This document shows positions 1-35,568 of a stretch of DNA of 64,000 nucleotides, in pieces. The notes under the pieces were generated by a model that worked only from the letters and a program-made list of their open reading frames with translations, was not told where the DNA came from and searched no databases. The position numbers were made by a program, and so were the translations under genes. Location: positions 384,001 through 448,000 of the forward strand of contig CBDHDF010000002.1 in assembly GCA_965261545.1 (NCBI GenBank), in the 5' to 3' direction. Position 1 is the first letter of the stretch, and every line of letters begins with the position of its first letter. Origin of the DNA: Bdellovibrionales bacterium. Its GTDB lineage: Bacteria > Bdellovibrionota > Bdellovibrionia > Bdellovibrionales > UBA1609.

Positions 1-28
1 ATGAAGGCGATGAATGAAGGAGGCGTCA

Positions 29-832
29 ATGCCAGATAGTGCTAAGAAAGTAGGTCCTGAAGTTGTGTGGAAGCTTATGGAGAAGGTCGCAAAATCCCAA
101 GAAGAGACAGACCGTCATTTTAAAGAGATGTCCAAGGAGGCTGATCTCCAACGGCAGGAGGCTGATTTCCAACGGAAGGAGAGAGACCATCACTTCAAAA
201 AGATGTCCAAGGAGGCCGATCTCCAAAGGAAGGAGACAGACCGTCATTTCAAAGAGATGTCCAAGGAGGCCGAACTTCAAAGGGAGGAAGCCAAACTTCA
301 AAGGGAGAAGGCCGACCTTGAAAGGAAGGAGACAGATCGTTATTTGAAAGAAATATCCAAAAAGGCAGATATTCGCCATGCTCACTTGGAAAAAAGAACA
401 AGAGAACTCAACGAATTGTTTACGGGACAATGGGGAAAACTGATAGAAAGCCTTGTTAAAGGTGACTTGGTAAGACTTCTCAATGAAAGAAATATCCAAG
501 TGATGGGGCTTGCCCAGGAAAATTTTCGTAGGCGGAATGGAGAAGAATACGAGGTTGATATCATTGCAGTCAATGGGCGGGAGGTTGTTGTTGTGGAAGT
601 AAAAACCACTTTAAAAAATCATCACCTTGACCATTTTATAGAAAAGCTCGGCATGTTTAAAGATATTTTTCCAGAGTACAAAGACAAGATAATTTACGGT
701 GCCATAGCTTATTTGAAGGCCAATGAAGGGGCTCATAACAAGGCTGAAAAAAAAGGTCTTTTTGTAATCCGAGCTACCGGCAATAGTGCCACCATCACCA
801 ATCAAAAAGAATTTTCTCCGAAGGTGTTCTAA
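29..832 (+). CDS. Coiled-coil + PD-(D/E)XK nuclease-fold protein (DUF3782-like), array copy 1 (267 aa)
   Basis: GGAGG RBS before ATG 29; K/E/R-rich repeats then WGKLIESLV...EVDIIAVNGREVVVVEVK (E..D..EVK catalytic-type motif). Confidence 0.8.
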   Translation: MPDSAKKVGPEVVWKLMEKVAKSQEETDRHFKEMSKEADLQRQEADFQRKERDHHFKKMSKEADLQRKETDRHFKEMSKEAELQREEAKLQREKADLERKETDRYLKEISKKADIRHAHLEKRTRELNELFTGQWGKLIESLVKGDLVRLLNERNIQVMGLAQENFRRRNGEEYEVDIIAVNGREVVVVEVKTTLKNHHLDHFIEKLGMFKDIFPEYKDKIIYGAIAYLKANEGAHNKAEKKGLFVIRATGNSATITNQKEFSPKVF

Positions 833-1196
833 GGCAAAAAGGACTTTGATACCTCGTTAAAGAAGCTTATGGAGCCTTTTACAGTGACGAGTCTGTAGAT
901 ACAGCGAGTCTACTGAGCCCTTTGTACAGGAGAGTGCTCAACTTGAAGAGTCATGGGAACGACAAAGACTATAAAAGCCAAAAAAAAAGAAAGAAGAGGC
1001 TGGAGGAGATTCTTAAAAAGCGTCTTGTATTGGCTTTTTTGTAAACCTTGGTGTTTTTGAATGCTTTGTGGGCATAGAAGATGAGGTTAAAATGAAGATA
1101 ATGGACTTATTTTTGCCTGTGCCTTTGTTGTGTGATATTTGTGAAATGAAACCAATGGGTGAAGTCAAGTGAAGCCAATGAATGATGGAGGTATCA

Positions 1197-2225
1197 ATGT
1201 CAGATAGTGCTAAGAAAGTAGGTCCTGAAGTTGTGTGGAAGCTTATGGAGAAGGTAGCAAAATCCCAAGAAGAGACAAGTCTCCAACAGAAGGAGACAGA
1301 CCGTCATTTCAAAGAGATGTCCAAGGAGGCTGATCTCCAAAGGAAGGAGGCCGATCTCCAAAGGAAGGAGACAGACCATCACTTCAAAAAGATGTCCAAG
1401 GAGGCCGATCTCCAAAGGAAGGAGACAGACCATCACTTCAAAAAGATGTCCAAGGAGGCCGATCTCCAAAGGAAGGAGACAGACCATCACTTCAAAAAGA
1501 TGTCCAAGGAGGCCGAACTTCAAAGGGAGAAGGCCGACCTTGAAAGGAAGGAGACAGACCGTTATTTGAAAAAGATGTCCAAGGAGGCCGAACTTCAAAG
1601 GGAGAAGGCCGACCTTGAAAGGAAGGAGACAGACCGTCATTTCAAAGAGATGTCCAAGGAGGCCGAACTTCAAAGGGAGGAAGCCAAACTTCAAAGGGAG
1701 AAGGCCGACCTTGAAAGGAAGGAGACAGATCGTTATTTGAAAGAAATATCCAAAAAGGCAGATATTCGCCATGCTCACTTGGAAAAAAGAACAAGAGAAC
1801 TCAACGAATTGTTTACGGGACAATGGGGAAAACTGATAGAAAGCCTTGTTAAAGGTGACTTGGTAAGACTTCTCAATGAAAGAAATATCCAAGTGATGGG
1901 GCTTGCCCAGGAAAATTTTCGCAGGCGGAATGGAGAAGAATACGAGGTTGATATCATTGCAGTCAATGGGCGGGAGGTTGTTGTTGTGGAAGTAAAAACC
2001 ACTTTAAAAAATCAGCACCTTGACCATTTTATAGAAAAGCTCGGCATGTTTAAAGATATTTTTCCAGAGTACAAAGACAAGATAATTTACGGTGCCATAG
2101 CTTATTTGAAGGCCAATGAAGGGGCTCATAACAAGGCTGAAAAAAAAGGTCTTTTTGTAATCCGAGCTACCGGCAATAGTGCCACCATCACCAATCAAAA
2201 AGAATTTTCTCCGAAGGTGTTCTAA
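1197..2225 (+). CDS. Coiled-coil + PD-(D/E)XK protein, array copy 2 (342 aa)
   Basis: Near-identical paralog; longest coil. Confidence 0.8.
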   Translation: MSDSAKKVGPEVVWKLMEKVAKSQEETSLQQKETDRHFKEMSKEADLQRKEADLQRKETDHHFKKMSKEADLQRKETDHHFKKMSKEADLQRKETDHHFKKMSKEAELQREKADLERKETDRYLKKMSKEAELQREKADLERKETDRHFKEMSKEAELQREEAKLQREKADLERKETDRYLKEISKKADIRHAHLEKRTRELNELFTGQWGKLIESLVKGDLVRLLNERNIQVMGLAQENFRRRNGEEYEVDIIAVNGREVVVVEVKTTLKNQHLDHFIEKLGMFKDIFPEYKDKIIYGAIAYLKANEGAHNKAEKKGLFVIRATGNSATITNQKEFSPKVF

Positions 2226-2589
2226 GGCAAAAAGGACTTTGATACCTCGTTAAAGAAGCTTATGGAGCCTTTTACAGTGACGAGTCTGTAGATACAGCGA
2301 GTCTACTGAGCCCTTTGTACAGGAGAGTGCTCAACTTGAAGAGTCATGGGAACGACAAAGACTATAAAAGCCAAAAAAAAAGAAAGAAGAGGCTGGAGGA
2401 GATTCTTAAAAAGCGTCTTGTATTGGCTTTTTTGTAAACCTTGGTGTTTTTGAATGCTTTGTGGGCATAGAAGATGAGGTTAAAATGAAGATAATGGACT
2501 TATTTTTGCCTGTGCCTTTGTTGTGTGATATTTGTGAAATGAAACCAATGGGTGAAGTCAAGTGAAGCCAATGAATGATGGAGGTATCA

Positions 2590-3551
2590 ATGTCAGATAG
2601 TGCTAAGAAAGTAGGTCCTGAAGTTGTGTGGAAGCTTATGGAGAAGGTCGCAAAATCCCAAGAAGAGACAAGTCTCCAACAGAAGGAGACAGACCGTCAT
2701 TTCAAAGAGATGTCCAAGGAGGCTGATCTCCAAAGGAAGGAGGCCGATCTCCAAAGGAAGGAGACAGACCATCACTTCAAAAAGATGTCCAAGGAGGCCG
2801 ATCTCCAAAGGAAGGAGACAGACCATCACTTCAAAAAGATGTCCAAGGAGGCCGAACTTCAAAGGGAGAAGGCCGACCTTGAAAGGAAGGAGACAGACCG
2901 TTATTTGAAAAAGATGTCCAAGGAGGCCGAACTTCAAAGGGAGAAGGCCGACCTTGAAAGGAAGGAGACAGACCGTCATTTCAAAGAGATGTCCAAGGAG
3001 GCCGAACTTCAAAGGGAGGAAGGGAGAAGGCCGACCTTGAAAGGAAGGAGACAGATCGTTATTTGAAAGAAATATCCAAAAAGGCAGATATTCGCCATGC
3101 TCACTTGGAAAAAAGAACGAGAGAACTCAACGAATTGTTTACGGGACAATGGGGAAAACTGATAGAAAGCCTTGTTAAAGGTGACTTGGTAAGGCTTCTC
3201 AATGAAAGAAATATCCAAGTGATGGGGCTTGCCCAGGAAAATTTTCGCAGGCGGAATGGAGAAGAATACGAGGTTGATATCATTGCAGTCAATGGGCGGG
3301 AGGTTGTTGTTGTGGAAGTAAAAACCACTTTAAAAAATCAGCACCTTGACCATTTTATAGAAAAGCTCGGCATGTTTAAAGATATTTTTCCAGAGTACAA
3401 AGACAAGATAATTTACGGTGCCATAGCTTATTTGAAGGCCAATGAAGGGGCTCATAACAAGGCTGAAAAAAAAGGTCTTTTTGTAATCCGAGCTACCGGC
3501 AATAGTGCCACCATCACCAATCAAAAAGAATTTTCTCCGAAGGTGTTCTAA
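2590..3551 (+). pseudogene. Array copy 3, frameshifted by a 13-bp deletion near 3020 (324 aa if restored)
   Basis: caaagggaggaagggagaagg versus caaagggaggaagccaaacttcaaagggagaagg in other copies; ORFs 2575-3066 and 3063-3551. Confidence 0.8.
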
Positions 3552-3899
3552 GGCAAAAAGGACTTTGATGCCTCGTTAAAGAAGCTTATGGAGCCTTTTA
3601 GTGACGAGTCTGTAGATACAGCGAGTCTACTGAGCCCTTTGTACAGGAGAGTGCTCAACTTGAAGAGTCATGGGAACGACAAAGACTATAAAAGCCAAAA
3701 AAAAAGAAAGAAGAGGCTGGAGGAGATTCTTAAAAAGCGTCTTGTATTGGCTTTTTTGTAAACCTTGGTGTTTTTGAATGCTTTGTGGGCATAGAAGATG
3801 AGGTTAAAATGAAGATAATGGACTTATTTTTGCCTGTGCCTTTGTTGTGTGATATTTGTGAAATGAAACCAATGGGTGAAGCCAATGAATGAGGCGTCA

Positions 3900-4820
3900 A
3901 TGTCAGATAGTGCTAAGAAAGTAGGTCCTGAAGTTGTGTGGAAGCTTATGGAGAAGGTCGCAAAATCCCAAGAAGAGACAAGTCTCCAACAGAAGGAGAC
4001 AGACCGTCATTTCAAAGAGATGTCCAAGGAGGCTGATCTCCAAAGGAAGGAGGCCGATCTCCAAAGGAAGGAGACAGACCATCACTTCAAAAAGATGTCC
4101 AAGGAGGCCGAACTTCAAAGGGAGAAGGCCGACCTTGAAAGGAAGGAGACAGACCGTTATTTGAAAAAGATGTCCAAGGAGGCCGAACTTCAAAGGGAGA
4201 AGGCCGACCTTGAAAGGAAGGAGACAGACCGTCATTTCAAAGAGATGTCCAAGGAGGCCGAACTTCAAAGGGAGGAAGCCAAACTTCAAAGGGAGAAGGC
4301 CGACCTTGAAAGGAAGGAGACAGATCGTTATTTGAAAGAAATATCCAAAAAGGCAGATATTCGCCATGCTCACTTGGAAAAAAGAACGAGAGAACTCAAC
4401 GAATTGTTTACGGGACAATGGGGAAAACTGATAGAAAGCCTTGTTAAAGGTGACTTGGTAAGGCTTCTCAATGAAAGAAATATCCAAGTGATGGGGCTTG
4501 CCCAGGAAAATTTTCGCAGGCGGAATGGAGAAGAATACGAGGTTGATATCATTGCAGTCAATGGGCGGGAGGTTGTTGTTGTGGAAGTAAAAACCACTTT
4601 AAAAAATCAGCACCTTGACCATTTTATAGAAAAGCTCGGCATGTTTAAAGATATTTTTCCAGAGTACAAAGACAAGATAATTTACGGTGCCATAGCTTAT
4701 TTGAAGGCCAATGAAGGGGCTCATAACAAGGCTGAAAAAAAAGGTCTTTTTGTAATCCGAGCTACCGGCAATAGTGCCACCATCACCAATCAAAAAGAAT
4801 TTTCTCCGAAGGTGTTCTAA
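3900..4820 (+). CDS. Coiled-coil + PD-(D/E)XK protein, array copy 4 (306 aa)
   Basis: Near-identical paralog. Confidence 0.8.
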   Translation: MSDSAKKVGPEVVWKLMEKVAKSQEETSLQQKETDRHFKEMSKEADLQRKEADLQRKETDHHFKKMSKEAELQREKADLERKETDRYLKKMSKEAELQREKADLERKETDRHFKEMSKEAELQREEAKLQREKADLERKETDRYLKEISKKADIRHAHLEKRTRELNELFTGQWGKLIESLVKGDLVRLLNERNIQVMGLAQENFRRRNGEEYEVDIIAVNGREVVVVEVKTTLKNQHLDHFIEKLGMFKDIFPEYKDKIIYGAIAYLKANEGAHNKAEKKGLFVIRATGNSATITNQKEFSPKVF

Positions 4821-5159
4821 GGCAAAAAGGACTTTGATGCCTCGTTAAAGAAGCTTATGGAGCCTTTTAGTGACGAGTCTGTAGATACAGCGAGTCTACT
4901 GAGCCCTTTGTACAGGAGAGTGCTCAACTTGAAGAGTCATGGGAACGACAAAGACTATAAAAGCCAAAAAAAAAGAAAGAAGAGGCTGGAGGAGATTCTT
5001 AAAAAGCGTCTTGTATTGGCTTTTTTGTAAATCTTGGTGTTTTTGAATGCTTTGTGGGCATAGAAGATGAGGTTAAAATGAAGATAATGGACTTATTTTT
5101 GCATGTGCCTTTGTTGTGTGATATTTGTGAAATGAAACCAATGGGTGATGGAGGCGTCA

Positions 5160-6005
5160 ATGTCAGATAGTGCTAAGAAAGTAGGTCCTGAAGTTGTGTG
5201 GAAGCTTATGGAGAAGGTCGCAAAATCCCAAGAAGAGACAAGTCTCCAACAGAAGGAGACAGACCGTCATTTCAAAGAGATGTCCAAGGAGGCTGATCTC
5301 CAAAGGAAGGAGGCCGATCTCCAAAGGAAGGAGACAGACCATCACTTCAAAAAGATGTCCAAGGAGGCCGAACTTCAAAGGGAGAAGGCCGACCTTGAAA
5401 GGAAGGAGACAGACCGTTATTTGAAAAAGATGTCCAAGGAGGCCGAACTTCAAAGGGAGGAAGCCAAACTTCAAAGGGAGAAGGCCGACCTTGAAAGGAA
5501 GGAGACAGATCGTTATTTGAAAGAAATATCCAAAAAGGCAGATATTCGCCATGCTCACTTGGAAAAAAGAACGAAAGAGCTCAACGAATTATTTACGGGG
5601 CAATGGGGAAAACTGATAGAAAGCCTTGTTAAAGGTGACTTGGTAAGGCTTCTCAATGAAAGAAATATCCAAGTGATGGGGCTTGCCCAGGAAAATTTTC
5701 GCAGGCGGAATGGAGAAGAATACGAGGTTGATATCATTGCAGTCAATGGGCGGGAGGTTGTTGTTGTGGAAGTAAAAACCACTTTAAAAAATCATCACCT
5801 TGACCATTTTATAGAAAAGCTCGGCATGTTTAAAGATATTTTTCCAGAGTACAAAGACAAGATAATTTACGGTGCCATAGCTTATTTGAAGGCCAATGAA
5901 GGGGCTCATAACAAGGCTGAAAAAAAAGGTCTTTTTGTAATCCGAGCTACCGGCAATAGTGCCACCATCACCAATCAAAAAGAATTTTCTCCGAAGGTGT
6001 TCTAA
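5160..6005 (+). CDS. Coiled-coil + PD-(D/E)XK protein, array copy 5 (281 aa)
   Basis: Near-identical paralog. Confidence 0.8.
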   Translation: MSDSAKKVGPEVVWKLMEKVAKSQEETSLQQKETDRHFKEMSKEADLQRKEADLQRKETDHHFKKMSKEAELQREKADLERKETDRYLKKMSKEAELQREEAKLQREKADLERKETDRYLKEISKKADIRHAHLEKRTKELNELFTGQWGKLIESLVKGDLVRLLNERNIQVMGLAQENFRRRNGEEYEVDIIAVNGREVVVVEVKTTLKNHHLDHFIEKLGMFKDIFPEYKDKIIYGAIAYLKANEGAHNKAEKKGLFVIRATGNSATITNQKEFSPKVF

Positions 6006-6223: not shown

Positions 6224-7070
6224 GAGCCTGTAAACTATTTTGTGTAACTGCCGAATCATATTAGGATGAACTATCATCCTGAAAGGAGAAGGCAGAATGG
6301 ATATCAAGACAATGTGTGCCACGAAGTCACGGAGGTGACATGCTGATGTGAAGATGGAGGTAGGTCCTCCGCACTCGGATTTCAGGATTTGAGTGCAAAC
6401 AACCTTGCTGCTGCATGGGAGGCAAGGCCCTTGTAGTGAGCGAGCAAGGAAAAGGCCGTAGTAAACGGTCATGTAAGTACTAGGGAGATGAGCGAAAGCA
6501 AACCCACCGACGACGCATCGAAAGATTAACAGTCGCGTCAAAACCGAAGGAAGGTTGTCTCCGTCGGGATAAGTCTAGAGGAAGCCTGATGACCGATCTA
6601 GACGGCGTGCGGTGTATAGGGGGCATGAACCTAGTACAGGCTTCGTATCGGAACGTGGGAACCTGCTGGTGGATGATAAGGGAAACGCTATAAGGGAGAC
6701 CCCCGAAGTGCTAAATACCGATGCCACCAACCAGGGGCAGAGTGATTCGTAGTAGTGATGAAGTTCTTGTAATGAGAATGGAGCGAAGGGGTCACATGAT
6801 TTATGGAAGTAGTCAGGCCAACTTGGTTATGCTGAGGAGGAGCCTAATGAAACGGAAAATCATAGGAGCCGTGTGAGGGGAGACTTTCAAGCACGGTTCT
6901 GTGAGGGGCAGTGGGGGAAGTTCCCACTGCCTACTCGATAGGCAAGGAACTAGCGAAGAACGTCAAGACCCAAAAGGATTTATCCGACATAACGGGTCAA
7001 CTGATGAAGGTTGTTTTAGAGACGGCCCTTAATGCGGAAATGGACGATCACCTAGGTTATGAGAGGCATG
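6224..7070 (+). mobile_element. IS256-family element, 5' part (intron-containing), truncated by IS21-A
   Basis: Same start as the complete copy at 20956 (gagcctgtaaactattttgtgtaactgc); transposase ATG 6297. Confidence 0.9.
6314..6939 (+). ncRNA. ORF-less group II intron (626 nt, IIB / bacterial class D-like), copy 1
   Basis: 5' GTGTG; domain V gagccgtgtgaggggagactttcaagcacggttc; domain VI with bulged A ending ctcgAT; EBS1 GTTGTC (6554-6559) pairs with exon GACAAT; removal restores the IS256 transposase frame. Confidence 0.92.
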
Positions 7071-8820
7071 TGTTAGCTGACAATTAAAATGCCCCACCGT
7101 CGCCAATGAAAAGTGGCCACTTTTCAGAGGAGGACCTATGGTGATTTTTGGCATTGTCAACCGAGACGCATATAATCAATTGATATTACTCATAAAAAGG
7201 CTCCGAGCTGATAAGAACTCCTTTTGGGTTCTTGTCGACCTGGAAAGGGGCTCCGTGTTGGAGAGTCCTTCCATGACAGCCTATTCAGGTTCCATATTTG
7301 TCATTTGTAGACTGTTTCTGGATTTCAATGAGGTTAAATATATAGTCAAGAAAAGCCTGTTTAGGCTGTGCCCATTTTCTAAAGTATTTAAATTCCACAA
7401 GATTCCAACATTTGCCTCAATTTTCATGGAATTTCTTTCTGAAGACAGGCTTCCCTTAAAGCCGTCGCCAATTAAAATGTCCCACTTTCAATATGGAGGT
7501 TGTCGCCAATGAAAAGTGACCAATCTTCAGGGAGTGTTCAAATACTAGACAATGAAGTCTCTTCTTCTGATATAGATACTAAGCTCACAGAGTCCCTCCC
7601 TTTTGCAACTCAAAAGGTTAGCAATGAGGAGGATCTTATGATTAGTCAATACACTTTCGGCCGCATTCGTGACCTGAGTCACAGTGGTAAAAATAAGACA
7701 GAAATATCTCGTGAATTAGGGATCAATCGTAAGACGGTGCGCAAGTACTGTGAGTCCAACACCCCACCGAAGTACAAGGCGAGGTCCAAAAGAACTCGCC
7801 CAGATCCCCTTAATGGATATATGGATCGGGTGAAGTACTTTTTGAAGTTGAACCCAAGTAACACCGCCCGTGAAATATATGAGCTATTAGTTGAGGAGGG
7901 TTATCGTGGGAGTGAGAGAACGGTTCAGAGAAGAGTTTGTGAGATTCTTGGTTCTCGCCCCAAGGAGCGTTTTTTCAGCCAAAGATATGATCCTGGAGAA
8001 CAGGCTCAGTTTGATTTTAAGGAGAAGGTTGCTTTACCATTTGCCGATGGTGTTCAGATCGTTCATCTCCATTTTGGAACATTGCCTTGTAGTGGCACCT
8101 GTTGGGTTCGTGCCTACCCCTTTCTTGTCTATGAGTGTTTCATCGATGGGGTGCATGCTTTTTTGAAAAGATAGGTGGGATGAGTGCGAACATCCGTATT
8201 GATAATTTATCTCCCTGTGTGAAGAAAGTTCTTAAAGGAAATCAGCGAATTTACACCCAATCTTTTGATCGAGCCATCCAATACTATGGATTTAAGGTTC
8301 TTCCCTGCCGCGCAGGGAAGGGCTCTGACAAGGGAGATGTGGAGCGTGATATTCGAACCTTCAGTTCTCGGATAAAAAATATTGTTAGAAACAAAGGAAT
8401 TGTTTTTAAAGACTGGGATCATTTGAATCAGTTTTTAGAGTCTTATATGGATCAGCATCAGAGTGACTCCACCAAATCTCGCTTTGAGGAGGAGGCCAAA
8501 GTTCTTAAGCCTTTGCCTCCACGAGATGAAGATATTCTCTGTAAGGTGAATATTTGTCAAAGTAATGGTTATGGGACTTTGAGAATAGGTAAAACCACAT
8601 ATTCCATACCTGATGAGGTGATCCAATCTCCCTGTAAAACCGTACAGGGTCCCTATCATGTCACGATCTATCGTGCAGGAGGGAAGCAAGAAATTGTCGC
8701 TCGCCATCAAAGAAAACCTGATGGGGAGCATAGTTGCTGAATTTCACGAGTTTGACCCACTGAATTTCACGAAGTTTGACCCACCCCTCAGTCAGTCAAT
8801 TTGAGGTCCAATTTTGAATT

Positions 8821-12761: not shown

Positions 12762-13619
12762 TTAGAACACCTTCGGAGAAAATTCTTTTTGATTGGTGAT
12801 GGTGGCACTATTGCCGGTAGCTCGGATTACAAAAAGACCTTTTTTTTCAGCCTTGTTATGAGCCCCTTCATTGGCCTTCAAATAAGCTATGGCACCGTAA
12901 ATTATCTTGTCTTTGTACTCTGGAAAAATATCTTTAAACATGCCGAGCTTTTCTATAAAATGGTCAAGGTGATGATTTTTTAAAGTGGTTTTTACTTCCA
13001 CAACAACAACCTCCCGCCCATTGACTGCAATGATATCAACCTCGTATTCTTCTCCATTCCGCCTGCGAAAATTTTCCTGGGCAAGCCCCATCACTTGGAT
13101 ATTTCTTTCATTGAGAAGCCTTACCAAGTCACCTTTAACAAGGCTTTCTATCAGTTTTCCCCATTGCCCCGTAAACAATTCATTGAGTTCTCTTGTTCTT
13201 TTTTCCAAGTGAGCATGGCGAATATCTGCCTTTTTGGATATTTCTTTCAAATAACGATCTGTCTCCTTCCTTTGAAGTTTGGCTTCCTCCCTTTGAAGTT
13301 CGGCCTCCTTGGACATCTCTTTGAAATGACGGTCTGTCTCCTTCCTTTCAAGGTCGGCCTTCTCCCTTTGAAGTTCGGCCTCCTTGGACATCTTTTTCAA
13401 ATAACGATCTGTCTCCTTCCTTTCAAGGTCGGCCTCCTTGGACATCTTTTTGAAGTGACGGTCTGTCTCCTTCCTTTGGAGATCAGCCTCCTTGGACATC
13501 TCTTTGAAATGACGGTCTGTCTCCTTCTGTTGGAGACTTGTCTCTTCTTGGGATTTTGCTACCTTCTCCATAAGCTTCCACACAACTTCAGGACCTACTT
13601 TCTTAGCACTATCTGGCAT
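12762..13619 (-). CDS. Coiled-coil + PD-(D/E)XK protein, array copy 6 (285 aa)
   Basis: Near-identical paralog. Confidence 0.8.
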   Translation of the reverse strand: MPDSAKKVGPEVVWKLMEKVAKSQEETSLQQKETDRHFKEMSKEADLQRKETDRHFKKMSKEADLERKETDRYLKKMSKEAELQREKADLERKETDRHFKEMSKEAELQREEAKLQRKETDRYLKEISKKADIRHAHLEKRTRELNELFTGQWGKLIESLVKGDLVRLLNERNIQVMGLAQENFRRRNGEEYEVDIIAVNGREVVVVEVKTTLKNHHLDHFIEKLGMFKDIFPEYKDKIIYGAIAYLKANEGAHNKAEKKGLFVIRATGNSATITNQKEFSPKVF

Positions 13620-13981
13620 TGACGCCTCCTTCATTCATTGGCTTCACTTGACTTCACCCATTGGTTTCATTTCACAAATATCACACAACAAAGGCACATG
13701 CAAAAATAAGTCCTTATCTTCATTTTAACCTCATCTTCTATGCCCACAAAGCATTCAAAAACACCAAGGTTTACAAAAAAGCCAATACAAGACGCTTTTT
13801 AAGAATCTCCTCCAGCCTCTTCTTTCTTTTTTTTTGGCTTTTATAGTCTTTGTCGTTCCCATAACTCTTCAAGTTGAGCACTCTCCTGTACAAAGGGCTC
13901 AGTAGACTCGCTGTATCTACAGACTCGTCACTGTAAAAGGCTCCATAAGCTTCTTTAACGAGGTATCAAAGTCCTTTTTGC

Positions 13982-14923
13982 CTAGAACACCTTCGGAGAA
14001 AATTCTTTTTGATTAGTGATGGTGGCACTATTGCCGGTAGCTCGGATTACAAAAAGACCTTTTTTTTCAGCCTTGTTATGAGCCCCTTCATTGGCCTTCA
14101 AATAAGCTATGGCACCGTAAATTATCTTGTCTTTGTACTCTGGAAAAATATCTTTAAACATGCCGAGCTTTTCTATAAAATGGTCAAGGTGATGATTTTT
14201 TAAAGTGGTTTTTACTTCCACAACAACAACCTCCCGCCCATTGACTGCAATGATATCAACCTCGTATTCTTCTCCATTCCGCCTGCGAAAATTTTCCTGG
14301 GCAAGCCCCATCACTTGGATATTTCTTTCATTGAGAAGTCTTACCAAGTCACCTTTAACAAGGCTTTCTATCAGTTTTCCCCATTGCCCCGTAAATAATT
14401 CGTTGAGCTCTTTCGTTCTTTTTTCCAAGTGAGCATGGCGAATATCTGCCTTTTTGGATATTTCTTTCAAATAACGATCTGTCTCCTTCCTTTCAAGGTC
14501 GGCCTTCTCCCTTTGAAGTTTGGCTTCCTCCCTTTGAAGTTTGGCTTCCTCCCTTTGAAGTTCGGCCTCCTTGGACATCTCTTTGAAATGACGGTCTGTC
14601 TCCTTCCTTTCAAGGTCGGCCTTCTCCCTTTGAAGTTCGGCCTCCTTGGACATCTTTTTCAAATAACGATCTGTCTCCTTCCTTTCAAGGTCGGCTTCCT
14701 CCCTTTGAAGTTCGGCCTCCTTGGACATCTTTTTGAAGTGATGGTCTGTCTCCTTCCTTTGGAGATCGGCCTCCTTCCTTTGGAGATCAGCCTCCTTGGA
14801 CATCTCTTTGAAATGACGGTCTGTCTCCTTCTGTTGGAGACTTGTCTCTTCTTGGGATTTTGCTACCTTCTCCATAAGCTTCCACACAACTTCAGGACCT
14901 ACTTTCTTAGCACTATCTGACAT
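13982..14923 (-). CDS. Coiled-coil + PD-(D/E)XK protein, array copy 7 (313 aa)
   Basis: Near-identical paralog; TAG stop. Confidence 0.8.
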   Translation of the reverse strand: MSDSAKKVGPEVVWKLMEKVAKSQEETSLQQKETDRHFKEMSKEADLQRKEADLQRKETDHHFKKMSKEAELQREEADLERKETDRYLKKMSKEAELQREKADLERKETDRHFKEMSKEAELQREEAKLQREEAKLQREKADLERKETDRYLKEISKKADIRHAHLEKRTKELNELFTGQWGKLIESLVKGDLVRLLNERNIQVMGLAQENFRRRNGEEYEVDIIAVNGREVVVVEVKTTLKNHHLDHFIEKLGMFKDIFPEYKDKIIYGAIAYLKANEGAHNKAEKKGLFVIRATGNSATITNQKEFSPKVF

Positions 14924-15262
14924 TGACACCTCCATCACCCATTGGTTTCATTTCACAAATATCACACAACAAAGGCACATGCAAAAATAAGTCCTTATCT
15001 TCATTTTAACCTCATCTTCTATGCCCACAAAGCATTCAAAAACACCAAGATTTACAAAAAAGCCAATACAAGACGCTTTTTAAGAATCTCCTCCAGCCTC
15101 TTCTTTCTTTTTTTTTGGCTTTTATAGTCTTTGTCGTTCCCATGACTCTTCAAGTTGAGCACTCTCCTGTACAAAGGGCTCAGTAGACTCGCTGTATCTA
15201 CAGACTCGTCACTGTAAAAGGCTCCATAAGCTTCTTTAACGAGGTATCAAAGTCCTTTTTGC

Positions 15263-16141
15263 CTAGAACACCTTCGGAGAAAATTCTTTTTGATTGGTGA
15301 TGGTGGCACTATTGCCGGTAGCTCGGATTACAAAAAGACCTTTTTTTTCAGCCTTGTTATGAGCCCCTTCATTGGCCTTCAAATAAGCTATGGCACCGTA
15401 AATTATCTTGTCTTTGTACTCTGGAAAAATATCTTTAAACATGCCGAGCTTTTCTATAAAATGGTCAAGGTGCTGATTTTTTAAAGTGGTTTTTACTTCC
15501 ACAACAACAACCTCCCGCCCATTGACTGCAATGATATCAACCTCGTATTCTTCTCCATTCCGCCTGCGAAAATTTTCCTGGGCAAGCCCCATCACTTGGA
15601 TATTTCTTTCATTGAGAAGCCTTACCAAGTCACCTTTAACAAGGCTTTCTATCAGTTTTCCCCATTGCCCCGTAAACAATTCATTGAGTTCTCTTGTTCT
15701 TTTTTCCAAGTGAGCATGGCGAATATCTGCCTTTTTGGATATTTCTTTCAAATAACGATCTGTCTCCTTCCTTTCAAGGTCGGCCTTCTCCCTTTGAAGT
15801 TTGGCTTCCTCCCTTTGAAGTTCGGCCTCCTTGGACATCTTTTTGAAGTGATGGTCTGTCTCCTTCCTTTGGAGATCGGCCTCCTTGGACATCTTTTTGA
15901 AGTGATGGTCTGTCTCCTTCCTTTGGAGATCGGCCTCCTTGGACATCTTTTTGAAGTGATGGTCTGTCTCCTTCCTTTGGAGATCGGCCTCCTTCCTTTG
16001 GAGATCAGCCTCCTTGGACATCTCTTTGAAATGACGGTCTGTCTCCTTCTGTTGGAGACTTGTCTCTTCTTGGGATTTTGCGACCTTCTCCATAAGCTTC
16101 CACACAACTTCAGGACCTACTTTCTTAGCACTATCTGACAT
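15263..16141 (-). CDS. Coiled-coil + PD-(D/E)XK protein, array copy 8 (292 aa)
   Basis: Near-identical paralog; TAG stop. Confidence 0.8.
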   Translation of the reverse strand: MSDSAKKVGPEVVWKLMEKVAKSQEETSLQQKETDRHFKEMSKEADLQRKEADLQRKETDHHFKKMSKEADLQRKETDHHFKKMSKEADLQRKETDHHFKKMSKEAELQREEAKLQREKADLERKETDRYLKEISKKADIRHAHLEKRTRELNELFTGQWGKLIESLVKGDLVRLLNERNIQVMGLAQENFRRRNGEEYEVDIIAVNGREVVVVEVKTTLKNQHLDHFIEKLGMFKDIFPEYKDKIIYGAIAYLKANEGAHNKAEKKGLFVIRATGNSATITNQKEFSPKVF

Positions 16142-16480
16142 TGACGCCTCCATCACCCATTGGTTTCATTTCACAAATATCACACAACAAAGGCACATGC
16201 AAAAATAAGTCCATTATCTTCATTTTAACCTCATCTTCTATGCCCACAAAGCATTCAAAAACACCAAGATTTACAAAAAAGCCAATACAAGACGCTTTTT
16301 AAGAATCTCCTCCAGCCTCTTCTTTCTTTTTTTTTGGCTTTTATAGTCTTTGTCGTTCCCATGACTCTTCAAGTTGAGCACTCTCCTGTACAAAGGGCTC
16401 AGTAGACTCGCTGTATCTACAGACTCGTCACTAAAAGGCTCCATAAGCTTCTTTAACGAGGCATCAAAGTCCTTTTTGCC

Positions 16481-17488
16481 TTAGAACACCTTCGGAGAAA
16501 ATTCTTTTTGATTGGTGATGGTGGCACTATTGCCGGTAGCTCGGATTACAAAAAGACCTTTTTTTTCAGCCTTGTTATGAGCCCCTTCATTGGCCTTCAA
16601 ATAAGCTATGGCACCGTAAATTATCTTGTCTTTGTACTCTGGAAAAATATCTTTAAACATGCCGAGCTTTTCTATAAAATGGTCAAGGTGCTGATTTTTT
16701 AAAGTGGTTTTTACTTCCACAACAACAACCTCCCGCCCATTGACTGCAATGATATCAACCTCGTATTCTTCTCCATTCCGCCTGCGAAAATTTTCCTGGG
16801 CAAGCCCCATCACTTGGATATTTCTTTCATTGAGAAGCCTTACCAAGTCACCTTTAACAAGGCTTTCTATCAGTTTTCCCCATTGCCCCGTAAATAATTC
16901 GTTGAGCTCTTTCGTTCTTTTTTCCAAGTGAGCATGGCGAATATCTGCCTTTTTGGATATTTCTTTCAAATAACGATCTGTCTCCTTCCTTTCAAGGTCG
17001 GCCTTCTCCCTTTGAAGTTTGGCTTCCTCCCTTTGAAGTTCGGCCTCCTTGGACATCTTTTTCAAATAACGATCTGTCTCCTTCCTTTCAAGGTCGGCCT
17101 TCTCCCTTTGAAGTTTGGCTTCCTCCCTTTGAAGTTCGGCCTCCTTGGACATCTTTTTGAAGTGATGGTCTGTCTCCTTCCTTTGGAGATCGGCCTCCTT
17201 GGACATCTTTTTGAAGTGATGGTCTGTCTCCTTCCTTTGGAGATCGGCCTCCTTGGACATCTTTTTGAAGTGATGGTCTGTCTCCTTCCTTTGGAGATCG
17301 GCCTCCTTGGACATCTTTTTGAAGTGACGGCCTGTCTCCTTCCTTTGGAGATCAGCCTCCTTGGACATCTCTTTGAAATGACGGTCTGTCTCCTTCTGTT
17401 GGAGACTTGTCTCTTCTTGGGATTTTGCTACCTTCTCCATAAGCTTCCACACAACTTCAGGACCTACTTTCTTAGCACTATCTGGCAT
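16481..17488 (-). CDS. Coiled-coil + PD-(D/E)XK protein, array copy 9 (335 aa)
   Basis: Near-identical paralog. Confidence 0.8.
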   Translation of the reverse strand: MPDSAKKVGPEVVWKLMEKVAKSQEETSLQQKETDRHFKEMSKEADLQRKETGRHFKKMSKEADLQRKETDHHFKKMSKEADLQRKETDHHFKKMSKEADLQRKETDHHFKKMSKEAELQREEAKLQREKADLERKETDRYLKKMSKEAELQREEAKLQREKADLERKETDRYLKEISKKADIRHAHLEKRTKELNELFTGQWGKLIESLVKGDLVRLLNERNIQVMGLAQENFRRRNGEEYEVDIIAVNGREVVVVEVKTTLKNQHLDHFIEKLGMFKDIFPEYKDKIIYGAIAYLKANEGAHNKAEKKGLFVIRATGNSATITNQKEFSPKVF

Positions 17489-17714
17489 TGACGCCTCCTT
17501 CATTCATTGGCTTCACTTGACTTCACCCATTGGTTTCATTTCACAAATATCACACAACAAAGGCACATGCAAAAATAAGTCCATTATCTTCATTTTAACC
17601 TCATCTTCTATGCCCACAAAGCATTCAAAAACACCAAGATTTACAAAAAAGCCAATACAAGACGCTTTTTAAGAATCTCCTCCAGCCTCTTCTTTCTTTT
17701 TTTTTGGCTTTTAT

Positions 17715-20950: not shown

Positions 20951-21045
20951 GGAAAGAGCCTGTAAACTATTTTGTGTAACTGCCGAATCATATTAGGATG
21001 AACTATCATCCTGAAAGGAGAAGGCAGAATGGATATCAAGACAAT

Positions 21046-21671
21046 GTGTGCCACGAAGTCACGGAGGTGACATGCTGATGTGAAGATGGAGGTAGGTCCT
21101 CCGCACTCGGATTTCAGGATTTGAGTGCAAACAACCTTGCTGCTGCATGGGAGGCAAGGCCCTTGTAGTGAGCGAGCAAGGAAAAGGCCGTAGTAAACGG
21201 TCATGTAAGTACTAGGGAGATGAGCGAAAGCAAACCCACCGACGACGCATCGAAAGATTAACAGTCGCGTCAAAACCGAAGGAAGGTTGTCTCCGTCGGG
21301 ATAAGTCTAGAGGAAGCCTGATGACCGATCTAGACGGCGTGCGGTGTATAGGGGGCATGAACCTAGTACAGGCTTCGTATCGGAACGTGGGAACCTGCTG
21401 GTGGATGATAAGGGAAACGCTATAAGGGAGACCCCCGAAGTGCTAAATACCGATGCCACCAACCAGGGGCAGAGTGATTCGTAGTAGTGATGAAGTTCTT
21501 GTAATGAGAATGGAGCGAAGGGGTCACATGATTTATGGAAGTAGTCAGGCCAACTTGGTTATGCTGAGGAGGAGCCTAATGAAACGGAAAATCATAGGAG
21601 CCGTGTGAGGGGAGACTTTCAAGCACGGTTCTGTGAGGGGCAGTGGGGGAAGTTCCCACTGCCTACTCGAT
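21046..21671 (+). ncRNA. ORF-less group II intron, copy 2
   Basis: Same sequence and same exon position as 6314-6939. Confidence 0.92.
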
Positions 21672-22297
21672 GTGTGCCACGAAGTCACGGAGGTGACATG
21701 CTGATGTGAAGATGGAGGTAGGTCCTCCGCACTCGGATTTCAGGATTTGAGTGCAAACAACCTTGCTGCTGCATGGGAGGCAAGGCCCTTGTAGTGAGCG
21801 AGCAAGGAAAAGGCCGTAGTAAACGGTCATGTAAGTACTAGGGAGATGAGCGAAAGCAAACCCACCGACGACGCATCGAAAGATTAACAGTCGCGTCAAA
21901 ACCGAAGGAAGGTTGTCTCCGTCGGGATAAGTCTAGAGGAAGCCTGATGACCGATCTAGACGGCGTGCGGTGTATAGGGGGCATGAACCTAGTACAGGCT
22001 TCGTATCGGAACGTGGGAACCTGCTGGTGGATGATAAGGGAAACGCTATAAGGGAGACCCCCGAAGTGCTAAATACCGATGCCACCAACCAGGGGCAGAG
22101 TGATTCGTAGTAGTGATGAAGTTCTTGTAATGAGAATGGAGCGAAGGGGTCACATGATTTATGGAAGTAGTCAGGCCAACTTGGTTATGCTGAGGAGGAG
22201 CCTAATGAAACGGAAAATCATAGGAGCCGTGTGAGGGGAGACTTTCAAGCACGGTTCTGTGAGGGGCAGTGGGGGAAGTTCCCACTGCCTACTCGAT
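21672..22297 (+). ncRNA. ORF-less group II intron, copy 3 (head-to-tail with copy 2)
   Basis: Exact junction ctcgAT|GTGTGcc. Confidence 0.92.
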
Positions 22298-22347: not shown

Positions 22348-22592
22348 GGGTGTGCTAACGATATACTGTAGATTATATACCCACAGCGTCAATTTGTGCC
22401 CTCTTCAATCAGCATTTAGTCATAGGTTGAGCTCGACACTGTCGGTTTAAGGCCTTAAAATTTTCATCAATCCCTTAAAAGTTCAATACAAAGCACTTGC
22501 AGAGTCAATCTTGTGGGTAGATTCTTCTTAAACTGATAGTATTAAGTTAGACTAAAGGACGGTAATTTCTACAGTATATTATTAGCACACCC
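22348..22592. mobile_element. 245-bp MITE, copy 1
   Basis: TIR gggtgtgctaa..atatactgtaga; 8-bp TSD ATCCGACA. Confidence 0.92.
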
Positions 22593-24412
22593 ATCCGACA
22601 TAACGGGTCAACTGATGAAGGTTGTTTTAGAGACGGCCCTTAATGCGGAAATGGACGATCACCTAGGTTATGAGAGGCATGAGAAGTCTGAGACCCGCAA
22701 ATCCAACACTCGCAATGGTTACAGTAGAAAGACCATAAAGGGAGAGAAAGGCGAGGTGGAGCTTCAGGTCCCCCGTGACCGAAGTGCCTCCTTTGAACCT
22801 CAAGTCATTCCCAAGGGTAAGACTCGTCTTGAGGGCTTTGAAGACAGTATCCTGACCCTCTATGCGAGGGGAATGACGACCAGGGATATTCAAGGAGCTA
22901 TCAAAGACCTCTACCATGGTGCAGAGATATCCCACTCAGTGATAGCCAACGTGACGGATGCTGTTATTGATGAAGTTACGGCTTGGCAGAACCGCCCCTT
23001 GGATAGCACTTACCCTATCGTATTTTTGGACTGTATCGTGGTGAAGGTCCATCAAGACAAGAGAGTTATTAATAAGGCGATTTACCTAGCTCTTGGTATT
23101 ACAGAGGAGGGTCAGAAAGACTTGTTGGGCCTATGGATTTCTGAAAATGAGGGTTCAAAGTTTTGGTTGAGTGTTTTGACTGAGCTGCAAAATCGAGGGT
23201 TGAAAGATGTATTTATATTTTCTGTAGATGGTCTTACAGGTTTTCCTCAAGCCATTTCAGCGGCTTTTCCCAAGTCTAAAGTGCAACTGTGCATTGTCCA
23301 TATGGTCCGCAATTCCCTTCGCTATGTTCCTTCCAAGGATATGAAAGCTGTCGCCCAAGACCTCAAGTCCATTTATGGCTCTACGACTCTGACAGAAGCT
23401 GAAAAGGCCCTTGAGGAATTTTGTACCAAGTGGTCTTCAAAGTATCCTAATATTGAAAAGTCTTGGCGTAGGAATTGGGACAATCTCATCACTATTTTCG
23501 ATTATCCGGATGAAATCAGAAAGATTTTTTATACCACAAACGCCATAGAGTCGTTAAATAGCGTGATCCGCAAGGCGATCAGAAATCGTAAGATATTTCC
23601 CAGTGATCGGTCGGCTTTAAAAGTTGTATATTTAGCGATAAAAATGGCCTCTAAGCGATGGACACGACCATTACACAACTGGAAGCCAGCCATGAACAGG
23701 TTTGCCATTGAATACGGTGACCGTTTTGACAACTAAGTTTTTTAATAAGGTCCACCACCTGCCTTATAAGGGGGCTTAAAAGCCCCTCTAAGGCGTTGAC
23801 AGAAGTACTGGAATACCGAGACTATGGTTAGGGTAATATAGTATGGGAACCTAAATACATGCCCTCTTGGTGCAGATTTGGGTTTCCATTTTTTTTCATA
23901 TTTCATCCCAATTCTGGTATTTCTCGAATATCCTAAGTTAAAAAAAATAAAAAAAAGGGGGTAATATAGTATGGGAACCTAAACACATGAACCCTTTGAT
24001 GAGATTGGAATTTCCATTTTTTTGAGAGAGCCATTGCTGATTTTTTTTCAACCAAGATGATAATTATTTATTTGAGTTCTTTCCAGTTCTGATATGATCC
24101 CATTACGGCTCCATAATACAATCAAAAGTCCAGAGTAACTAAAGAGGCCAATTATATAGACCAGCGAAGATGTCCACCTCCCCATTAACTTATAATGCAT
24201 TGTGACTGACAAAATCGCTTGAAGGAAAAAATGTCAATTATACATTGACGAATAATATGGGACTGTGCTTTTTGCCAGGAGTGGAGCCACATAAGTGGCT
24301 TTAAGATTTAAGAAAAAAATTGCAGTTACACAATTATTTTTACAGTCCCTAAGGAAACGGCATTGGTCCTAGGAGAGTAGGGGTTTTATGCACTTCCCCC
24401 TTTCGTTCACAA

Positions 24413-34224: not shown

Positions 34225-34377
34225 TCCTTTGACTATGGTTCGAAGCTAAATGGGAAGAATCCTCAGGTGGATGCCAACGATAGTGAGCATATTTACGACC
34301 ACTTGCATAAAGTGAATGATTATATATATTTATGGAAATTTCAATGGAAAAGTTGTCTATTGTGTCCGAGGAGTAAC

Positions 34378-35491
34378 GGGTGCTTACAAAGGGCAACCTG
34401 TCTTGCGGGTAGAAATACCCAAGTCAGACGGGGGCACAAGACCCTTGGGTGTCCTGGCCTTGGAGGACAAGATTGTCCAGAAGGCCGTTGTAGACAGCAT
34501 CCTCTCTCCCATCTACGAGGAACATTTCCTCGGTTATAGCTACGGATTCCGTCCAGGGCGTGGAGCGCATAATGCGTTGGATGCTCTGGCTTACGGAATA
34601 GAGCGTAGAAAGATCAGCTACATATTGGATGCGGATATAAAATCCTACTTCGATAGCGTGGATAGAAAGACTCTAATTCGCTTTCTAAAACACCTCATCG
34701 GAGATGAGAGACTCATTCGTCTCTTTGAAAAGTGGCTCAAGTGCGGAGTGCTATCTCAAGGCGTCTTAGAAGACACAGGGAGAGGGACCGTTCAAGGTTC
34801 AAATATTTCCCCTATCTTCGCCAACATATATTTACATTATGTGTTGGATTTATGGATGCAGAAATGGCGCAAGGACCATGCCACAGGGGACATGATATTT
34901 GTTCGCTACGCCGATGACTTTGTCGTAGGCTTTCAATACAAGGGGGAAGCTGAACGCTTCCTCAATGATCTGAAGCGCAGGCTTAAGGAGTTTTCTCTAG
35001 AAATACATCCGGGGAAAACTCGCCTCATAGAGTTCGGTCGATTTGCAAATGCAAATTGCCGCCGACGAGGTCTTGGTCACTCCGAGACTTTTGATTTCTT
35101 AGGATTCACTCACTTTTGTGTGCGCACGAGGAAAGGAGGCTTTAGGATAGGGCGTAAACCCATATCCAAGAGAGTCTGCCGGACCTTACAGCACCTGAAG
35201 CTGAGTCTGAGAAAACGAGTCTACACGAGGGACCTAGCGGAATGTGCAAAGTGGTTGGGTTTGGTCATCAAAGGCTGGCTCAATTATTTTGCGGTTCCAG
35301 GAAGTACGGTGTACCTACGAAAATTTATTTGCGCAATCAGGAGTGCTTGGATGAAAGCCATCCGACGACGCTCACAGCGTGGACGGAGATTCTCGTGGAA
35401 GAGGTTGGATAGAATGATTCGTCTATTCTGGCCTCGTATATCCATACGCCACCCGTGGCCAACAGATAGGTTCGCTTGCGGTACCACCTGA
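34378..35491 (+). pseudogene. ltrA: Group II intron RT/maturase, 5'-truncated, no endonuclease domain
   Basis: RVEIPK..G.TRPLG, SYGFRPGR, DADIK.YFD, QG.NISP, RYADDF, FDFLGF, HPWP. Confidence 0.9.
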
Positions 35492-35496
35492 AGTAG

Positions 35497-35568
35497 GAGC
35501 CGGATGCTTTAACGAGCACGTCCGGATCTGTGCGGGGGGTGCGTGGCAACACGCATTCCTACCGTAAC
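35497..35568 (+). ncRNA. Group II intron domains V-VI (3' end of the RT-encoding intron)
   Basis: gagccggatgctttaacgagcacgtccggatc; domain VI ending cctaccgtaAC. Confidence 0.88.

Follow-up and report, generated by a model that had tools for sequence, protein, structure and literature searches.

An ORF-less class D type group II intron as a probable non-autonomous parasite of insertion sequences in a Bdellovibrionales genome

How an intron without a reverse transcriptase (RT) gene came to lie inside a transposase gene, which protein copies it and what it does to the element it enters are the questions raised by the locus analysed here. The window is a stretch of 64,000 nt from a Bdellovibrionales bacterium (GCA_965261545.1, CBDHDF010000002.1 positions 384,001-448,000, forward strand). 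The 626-nt intron at window 6314-6939 is called intron A, a sister family of ORF-less introns in the same genome is called family B, and the genome contigs are given as C-numbers. The explanation held with good confidence is that intron A is a non-autonomous class D (IIB) parasite of insertion sequences, mobilised by a class D RT/maturase acting in trans and forming dimers by re-homing.

The anatomy of intron A was analysed and its features, together with the two IS256-family copies of the window, are collected in Table 1. The Rfam scan, which had been proposed earlier as a check, identified domain I as RF01999 at 6356-6473 (88.5 bits) and domains V-VI as RF00029 at 6864-6939 (66 bits). The fold of the region gave a z-score of -3.2, and none of the 20 shuffles was equally stable. 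The domain V triad, the bulged A of domain VI and the GUGYG and AY ends are those of a group II intron, and splicing is predicted from this anatomy. The search for intron-free IS256 copies, also proposed earlier, revealed that 59 of the 67 IS256 5' junctions in the genome are empty and eight are occupied. The ligated exon junction is present at all 59 without the intron, and at 43 of them it lies inside a 400-aa ORF assigned by Pfam to Transposase_mut (Mutator family). Since the intron-free junction exists in the same genome, both splice sites of intron A are exact. These results uphold the sequence-only reading in its description of a 626-nt ORF-less group II intron in codon 6 of an IS256-family transposase gene, with an EBS1 that is displayed by a stem-loop and pairs with IBS1.

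Table 1. Coordinates of intron A, of its host elements and of their neighbours in the window
Feature	Position	Strand	Evidence or remark
Left end of IS256-family copy 1 (terminal repeat, RBS)	6224..6296	+	100% match with intact copies
Exon 1, copy 1: codons 1-5 and two bases	6297..6313	+	IBS2 = ATC at -11..-9; IBS1 6308-6313
Intron A, ORF-less group IIB, class D type	6314..6939	+	Rfam, intron-free alleles; 626 nt, GTGTG...CTCGAT
Probable EBS2, 3-4 base pairs only	6524..6527	+	Inferred from position and covariation with in-genome variants
EBS1 in d3 loop	6554..6559	+	6/6 pairing with IBS1
EBS3 (U)	6617	+	Partner A at +1 of IS256 and, by wobble, G1 of an intron already in place
Gamma (A)	6739	+	Partner is T6939, the final base of the intron
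Reduced domain IV, DIVa-like hairpin, 66 nt	6797..6862	+	RBS 6834-6842, ATG 6847; RT gene scar
Domain V, 34 nt, AGC triad	6866..6899	+	Rfam and fold
Domain VI, bulged A at 6933	6902..6939	+	Rfam and fold
Exon 2, copy 1; IS stops at about 7070	6940..7070	+	Spliced frame 54 aa
IS21-like element truncating copy 1	7080..8740	+	About 43 genome matches; same ORF adjoins istB elsewhere
IS256 copy 2, left end and exon 1	20956..21045	+	ATG 21029
Intron A, upstream dimer member	21046..21671	+	Identical to 6314-6939; probably the later arrival (order inferred)
Intron A, downstream dimer member	21672..22297	+	Identical to 6314-6939; no spacer
MITE-like insert of 245 bp breaking copy 2 transposase	22348..22592	.	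Inverted ends, 8-bp target duplication, 10 matches
Remainder of IS256 copy 2	22593..24350	+	Transposase to 23736; right end approximate

The same site had been described as filled in both IS256 copies of the window. Both are indeed occupied, but the second holds a head-to-tail dimer and not a single copy. The claim that splicing restores the reading frame was likewise borne out only in part: restoration is exact at the junction, and three of the eight occupied IS256 copies in the genome would yield the 400-aa protein after splicing, but neither of the window copies is among them, both being broken beyond the intron (54 aa for copy 1 and 25 aa for copy 2). Elsewhere in the window, nine paralogous genes form two opposed arrays (14-6005 and 12762-17503), with internal repeats of 21, 54 and 75 nt and a common C-terminal domain.

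The class of the intron was then analysed from its RNA and its relatives. RF01999 is matched by intron A, by an S. meliloti plasmid intron and by two other introns with co-clustering RTs, while the other RT introns of the genome match RF02005 instead. The record of the S. meliloti intron names ltrA only, and the intron is taken here to be RmInt1 itself. The Rfam model held in common with it supports the class D affinity put forward by the sequence-only reading. Intron A is accordingly assigned to the class D type, subgroup IIB, where the class is drawn from the RNA and the relatives only, the intron having no RT gene of its own to be placed in the class D clade, and the subgroup is indicated by an EBS3-IBS3 pair at the 3' exon. 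Group IIC introns are characterised by a short domain V, the lack of an EBS2 region and insertion after hairpins; this group was ruled out by the 34-nt domain V with AGC, the full RF01999-type domain I and insertion within ORFs in either orientation.

Among 100 related genomes, the nearest relative with an ORF is 67% identical over 463 nt and encodes a YADD RT, itself 51% identical to the S. meliloti protein. This RT starts directly after a hairpin and RBS which align with 6818-6849 of intron A, thereby supporting the earlier proposal that the small domain IV hairpin with its RBS and ATG is the scar of an RT ORF. The retained part of domain IV is read as DIVa, reported to be the main protein-binding site (PMC4615759). 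An ORF-bearing parent more than about 70% identical was not found in the 100 related genomes, five of which gave a match, or by narrow motif scans among the GTDB loci listed, 26 metagenome loci and plasmids, the best matches over all of these being about 67-71%; two viral loci matched the motif scan. The domain I motif occurs at at least 116 GTDB loci. Among those listed, 52 had enough downstream DNA, and 40 of these had a domain V, which lay at ORF distance in 34 cases and no more than 900 nt away in six. The Rfam scan of four short loci revealed three ORF-less RF01999 introns and one nested case, so ORF-less class D forms recur.

How the intron pairs with its exons was compared over the occupied sites. 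EBS1 pairs 6/6 at four of the six 5' junction types, 5/6 at one and 4/6 at one, the last being a single fragment (C11:395083), as compared with a background of sampled genome positions, of which 0.6% give 6/6 and 5.8% give 5/6 or more. In two diverged copies of intron A the EBS1 has changed and the exon IBS1 matches the change, and family B has its own EBS1 which matches its IBS1. The EBS2-IBS2 pairing lies at the same position throughout, with 3-4 bp in intron A, 4 bp in one variant and 6 bp in family B. The ATC (IBS2) criterion was derived from the sites themselves, so that its background of 0.2% is no independent test. The EBS3 column (6617) forms a Watson-Crick pair with exon 2 base +1 in 14 of 16 introns (1/10000 shuffles), and the gamma column (6739) does so with the intron's final base in 21 of 24, the remaining three being G-U; in both cases the introns are related and the counts are not independent. 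The Transposase_31 allele that carries the intron has, at C4:185490-185505, two bases in the IBS2 region that none of the 20 empty alleles has, and the difference is towards the motif of the other targets.

The genome was found to contain ten contiguous full-length copies of intron A, eight of them identical, besides interrupted copies and fragments. The occupied IS256 copies represent at least five distinguishable IS haplotypes, which are also found among the empty copies or have their nearest kin there, and a marker 18 nt upstream of the junction and another 22 nt downstream of it occur in three combinations among them. Beyond IS256, intron A is present once in a DDE_Tnp_1 element (35 empty junctions), once in IS3 (22 empty junctions) and once in a Transposase_31 gene (20 empty junctions), the last two insertions being antisense to the ORF, and also at one unique site. 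Retrohoming copies the intron alone. Carriage by the IS would yield one lineage, so the several haplotypes favour homing, and the main route of spread appears to have been homing, probably retrohoming. Both routes had been offered by the sequence-only reading. Passive spread with the IS does not hold as the main one, given that the flanking alleles differ 18-22 nt from the junction and that the intron also entered three repeated elements of unrelated kinds, besides one unique site; trans homing is in accordance with the near-identical copies on several IS256 alleles, in other elements and at the unique site. Intron A has what marks a non-autonomous mobile ORF-less intron, namely near-identical copies in unrelated places, pairing of EBS with IBS, and alleles that are empty. 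The TeI3 kind also has an intact, closely related RT in its own genome; here the assembly gave broken class D-like loci only.

Head-to-tail dimers occur twice in the assembly. The second, at C11:520568-525747, lies on an IS haplotype different from that of the window dimer, its first copy being interrupted and its second carrying a 4-nt deletion. An occupied site retains IBS1 and IBS2 and presents G at +1, with which EBS3 (U) is able to pair; G at +1 is also found at one ordinary, non-dimer insertion site. The dimers are consistent with a second homing at a junction already filled, by pairing of EBS3 U with intron G1. The same EBS3(U)-G1 explanation has been offered for RmInt2, which gave a head-to-tail product in a plasmid assay (PMC4615759), and for the tandems of EcKTE56.groEL, reported at 22.4% for the ORF-deleted form vs 4.2% (PMC12584367), and retargeted RmInt1 is also described as producing tandems (PMC4075523). 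Since the end of the intron pairs only 4/6 with EBS1, a second copy is less likely to have entered behind the first, at its 3' end. In public contigs the intron-free junction was recovered in 4/4 runs, and no dimer-bridging piece was present among the matches listed. In other genomes (L081:2494-2540 and L139), class D type introns likewise begin directly after the 3' end of another intron.

The protein that could move intron A was sought among the RTs of the genome. There are 30 RVT_1 matches, and seven intact intron RTs, of 495 aa (four copies), 463 aa (two) and 435 aa (one). The RNAs of these introns match RF02005, and the proteins share 28-36% identity with class D RTs and fall outside the clade of the S. 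meliloti protein; the tree has long branches, one N-terminal fragment was left out, and it was used only to set the three intact RTs outside class D. The tblastn search of the assembly gave no intact class D RT, class D-like matches of at least 40% being confined to three broken loci. These loci are copies of one element, each truncated or interrupted, and its RNA is about 70% like intron A in short patches only. The genome search suggested earlier for an RT-encoding intron with the same RNA returned none, either by blastn or by a domain I-III profile, and all 23 RF01999 matches in the genome are ORF-less copies or fragments of intron A or family B. With 11 contigs and a completeness of 96.8%, the assembly may lack a helper. 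A single exception apart, ORF-less introns of bacteria are reported to be accompanied nearly always by a related intron that encodes a protein (PMC4424553), and mobilisation of ORF-less introns in trans has been described (PMC2882425). The helper is most likely a class D intron of the same lineage, recently broken, lost or unassembled, and this is ranked above a driver from another class.

Such a cross-class driver would be one of the intact RTs of 495, 463 or 435 aa, splicing and mobilising intron A in trans. These seven copies are the only intact intron RTs of the assembly, while the ORF-less copies are mostly identical, and a variant of the 463-aa intron at C2:263415 is followed by the same IS256 exon 2. 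However, the different Rfam model of their RNAs and the low identity of their proteins to class D RTs speak against this, as does the class D DIVa retained by intron A. The variant at C2:263415 may itself be an insertion behind a lost copy of intron A, as the two intact 5' junctions of the 463-aa intron share a motif like the end of a class D domain VI. Specificity is also found within the class, where proteins, though related, are described as often failing on the RNA mobility of each other, even between close pairs (PMC4615759). A cross-class driver of intron A is thus rated as doubtful in a high degree, and the general form of the proposal, in which two ORF-less class D families (A and B) are now spread by the RT of another intron class, is judged equally improbable. 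If true, it would break the rule by which an intron RNA works only with a protein of the matching class, and it would bear on the origin of a shared splicing apparatus; a literature search on cross-class maturases, thin in its coverage of subscription journals, found nothing.

Spread without any RT, by gene conversion between IS256 copies with dimers arising from recombination with circular intron DNA or from misassembly, is regarded as unlikely. The genome is rich in repeats, an intact class D RT was not found in the assembly, and a chimera at C2:463512-464144, whose 5' part is family B and whose last 274 nt are identical to intron A, preceded by a 5' exon of B type and followed by a unique 3' flank, points to recombination or template switching between the families. 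Gene conversion, however, cannot give precise insertion at four non-homologous sites with matching IBS1, and it would require a crossover on each side no farther than about 20 nt away. A DNA circle would need an RT too, and the interrupted first copy and the 4-nt deletion of the C11 dimer are unlike a collapsed or doubled repeat. A further proposal, that the intron is a domesticated switch through which transposase supply depends on splicing, carried along with the IS, draws on the exact restoration of the frame, on the three copies that would give the full 400 aa and on two occupied copies with a common left flank, which may be a single duplicated event. But the occupied copies form no single IS lineage, and the insertions in IS3 and Transposase_31, being antisense to the ORF, cannot leave the host mRNA by splicing. 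With 59 of 67 junctions empty and 43 of these in a full ORF, the splicing-dependent transposase production claimed by the sequence-only reading fails. Splicing of RmInt1 in vivo is given as 0.07% (PMC3035460), and its insertion is interpreted as blocking its IS (PMC5894124). The switch is therefore held to be very improbable indeed, and intron A likely disables the IS copies it enters, as RmInt1 is taken to do.

The favoured explanation, a class D parasite moved in trans, would begin with an ancestor which lost the RT gene from domain IV and retained the DIVa hairpin as the protein-binding place. With a class D RT/maturase supplied in trans, the RNA would be spliced as a lariat, which would reverse-splice into DNA pairing with EBS1, the short EBS2 and EBS3, and a cDNA copy would follow. 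Codon 6 of the abundant IS256 would be the best target, and fitting sites in other mobile elements would be used too. At an occupied site, where IBS1 and IBS2 are kept and G stands at +1, EBS3 (U) would pair again and a second copy would enter in front of the first. The intron would then be a parasite, probably to the cost of the function of each IS copy entered.

Each of these behaviours is already known, namely ORF-less introns moved in trans, class D introns in insertion sequences and tandem re-homing. This locus joins all three naturally, with dozens of empty alleles as controls, and the protein behind the recent copying is a testable puzzle. No paper combining group II intron, IS256, insertion sequence and retrohoming was found in a search that covered subscription journals thinly. 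Among the systems described, RmInt1 and RmInt2 of S. meliloti (PMC4615759, PMC5894124, PMC3035460) share with intron A the Rfam domain I model, IS targets and the EBS3 U, and RmInt2 also the two-base linker, the imperfect EBS2 and the head-to-tail product of the plasmid assay (PMC4615759). In contrast to both, intron A has no RT gene, targets codon 6 of IS256 and three other elements, and forms its dimers in a natural chromosome; its targets also lack the T-15 that RmInt1 is reported to need. TeI3 of Thermosynechococcus elongatus is described as class CL/IIB1 with closely related intact drivers in the same genome, whereas the RNA of intron A is of the class D type and its assembly has no intact RT of the same class (PMC2882425). 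EcKTE56.groEL resembles it in the second copy at the occupied 5' junction, in the EBS3(U)-G1 wobble and in being commoner when ORF-deleted, but is a IIB1 intron, groEL-specific and studied in a laboratory assay (PMC12584367). C.te.I1 of Clostridium tetani is likewise an ORF-less bacterial intron with no related protein in its genome; it is described as a splicing element, whereas intron A has many recent insertions and no sign of service to host genes (PMC4424553).

Other elements of the genome were also observed. Family B (647 nt, about 71% identical to intron A) is found at C2:47262-47908 and in six other RF01999 matches; an IS21 end site present in 60 copies is filled by it in four, the end of the DDE_Tnp_1 element is a further site, and an RBS or ATG scar is absent from its domain IV. 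The 463-aa RT intron (C11:346168-348328, C10:509088-511248 and C2:263415) lies exactly at the 3' end of a class D-like intron and is also found antisense inside a family B copy. It may target the ends of class D introns, both of its 5' exons ending in a similar motif. The 495-aa RT intron (C11:939816-943790, C10:1010149-1015948 and window 34316-35568) occurs in tandem arrays whose members are 6 nt apart, and several of its copies, that of the window included, are split by a serine-recombinase-like element. The domain V of the 435-aa RT intron (C7:387777-389650) is unusual and escapes RF00029; the intron also has an ORF-less derivative of 730 nt, about 83% identical, at C11:955493-956222. Two RTs are not of the intron type, at C4:59374-60432 (YMDD, 353 aa) and C11:1009752-1010651 (YVDD, 300 aa). 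A 1.9-kb DDE_Tnp_1 element (C2:237195-239105 and 21 others) is flanked by direct repeats of 8-409 bp at 17 of its 22 copies and has duplicated 243 bp of one intron copy; long variable repeats are known for IS1549 and IS1634.
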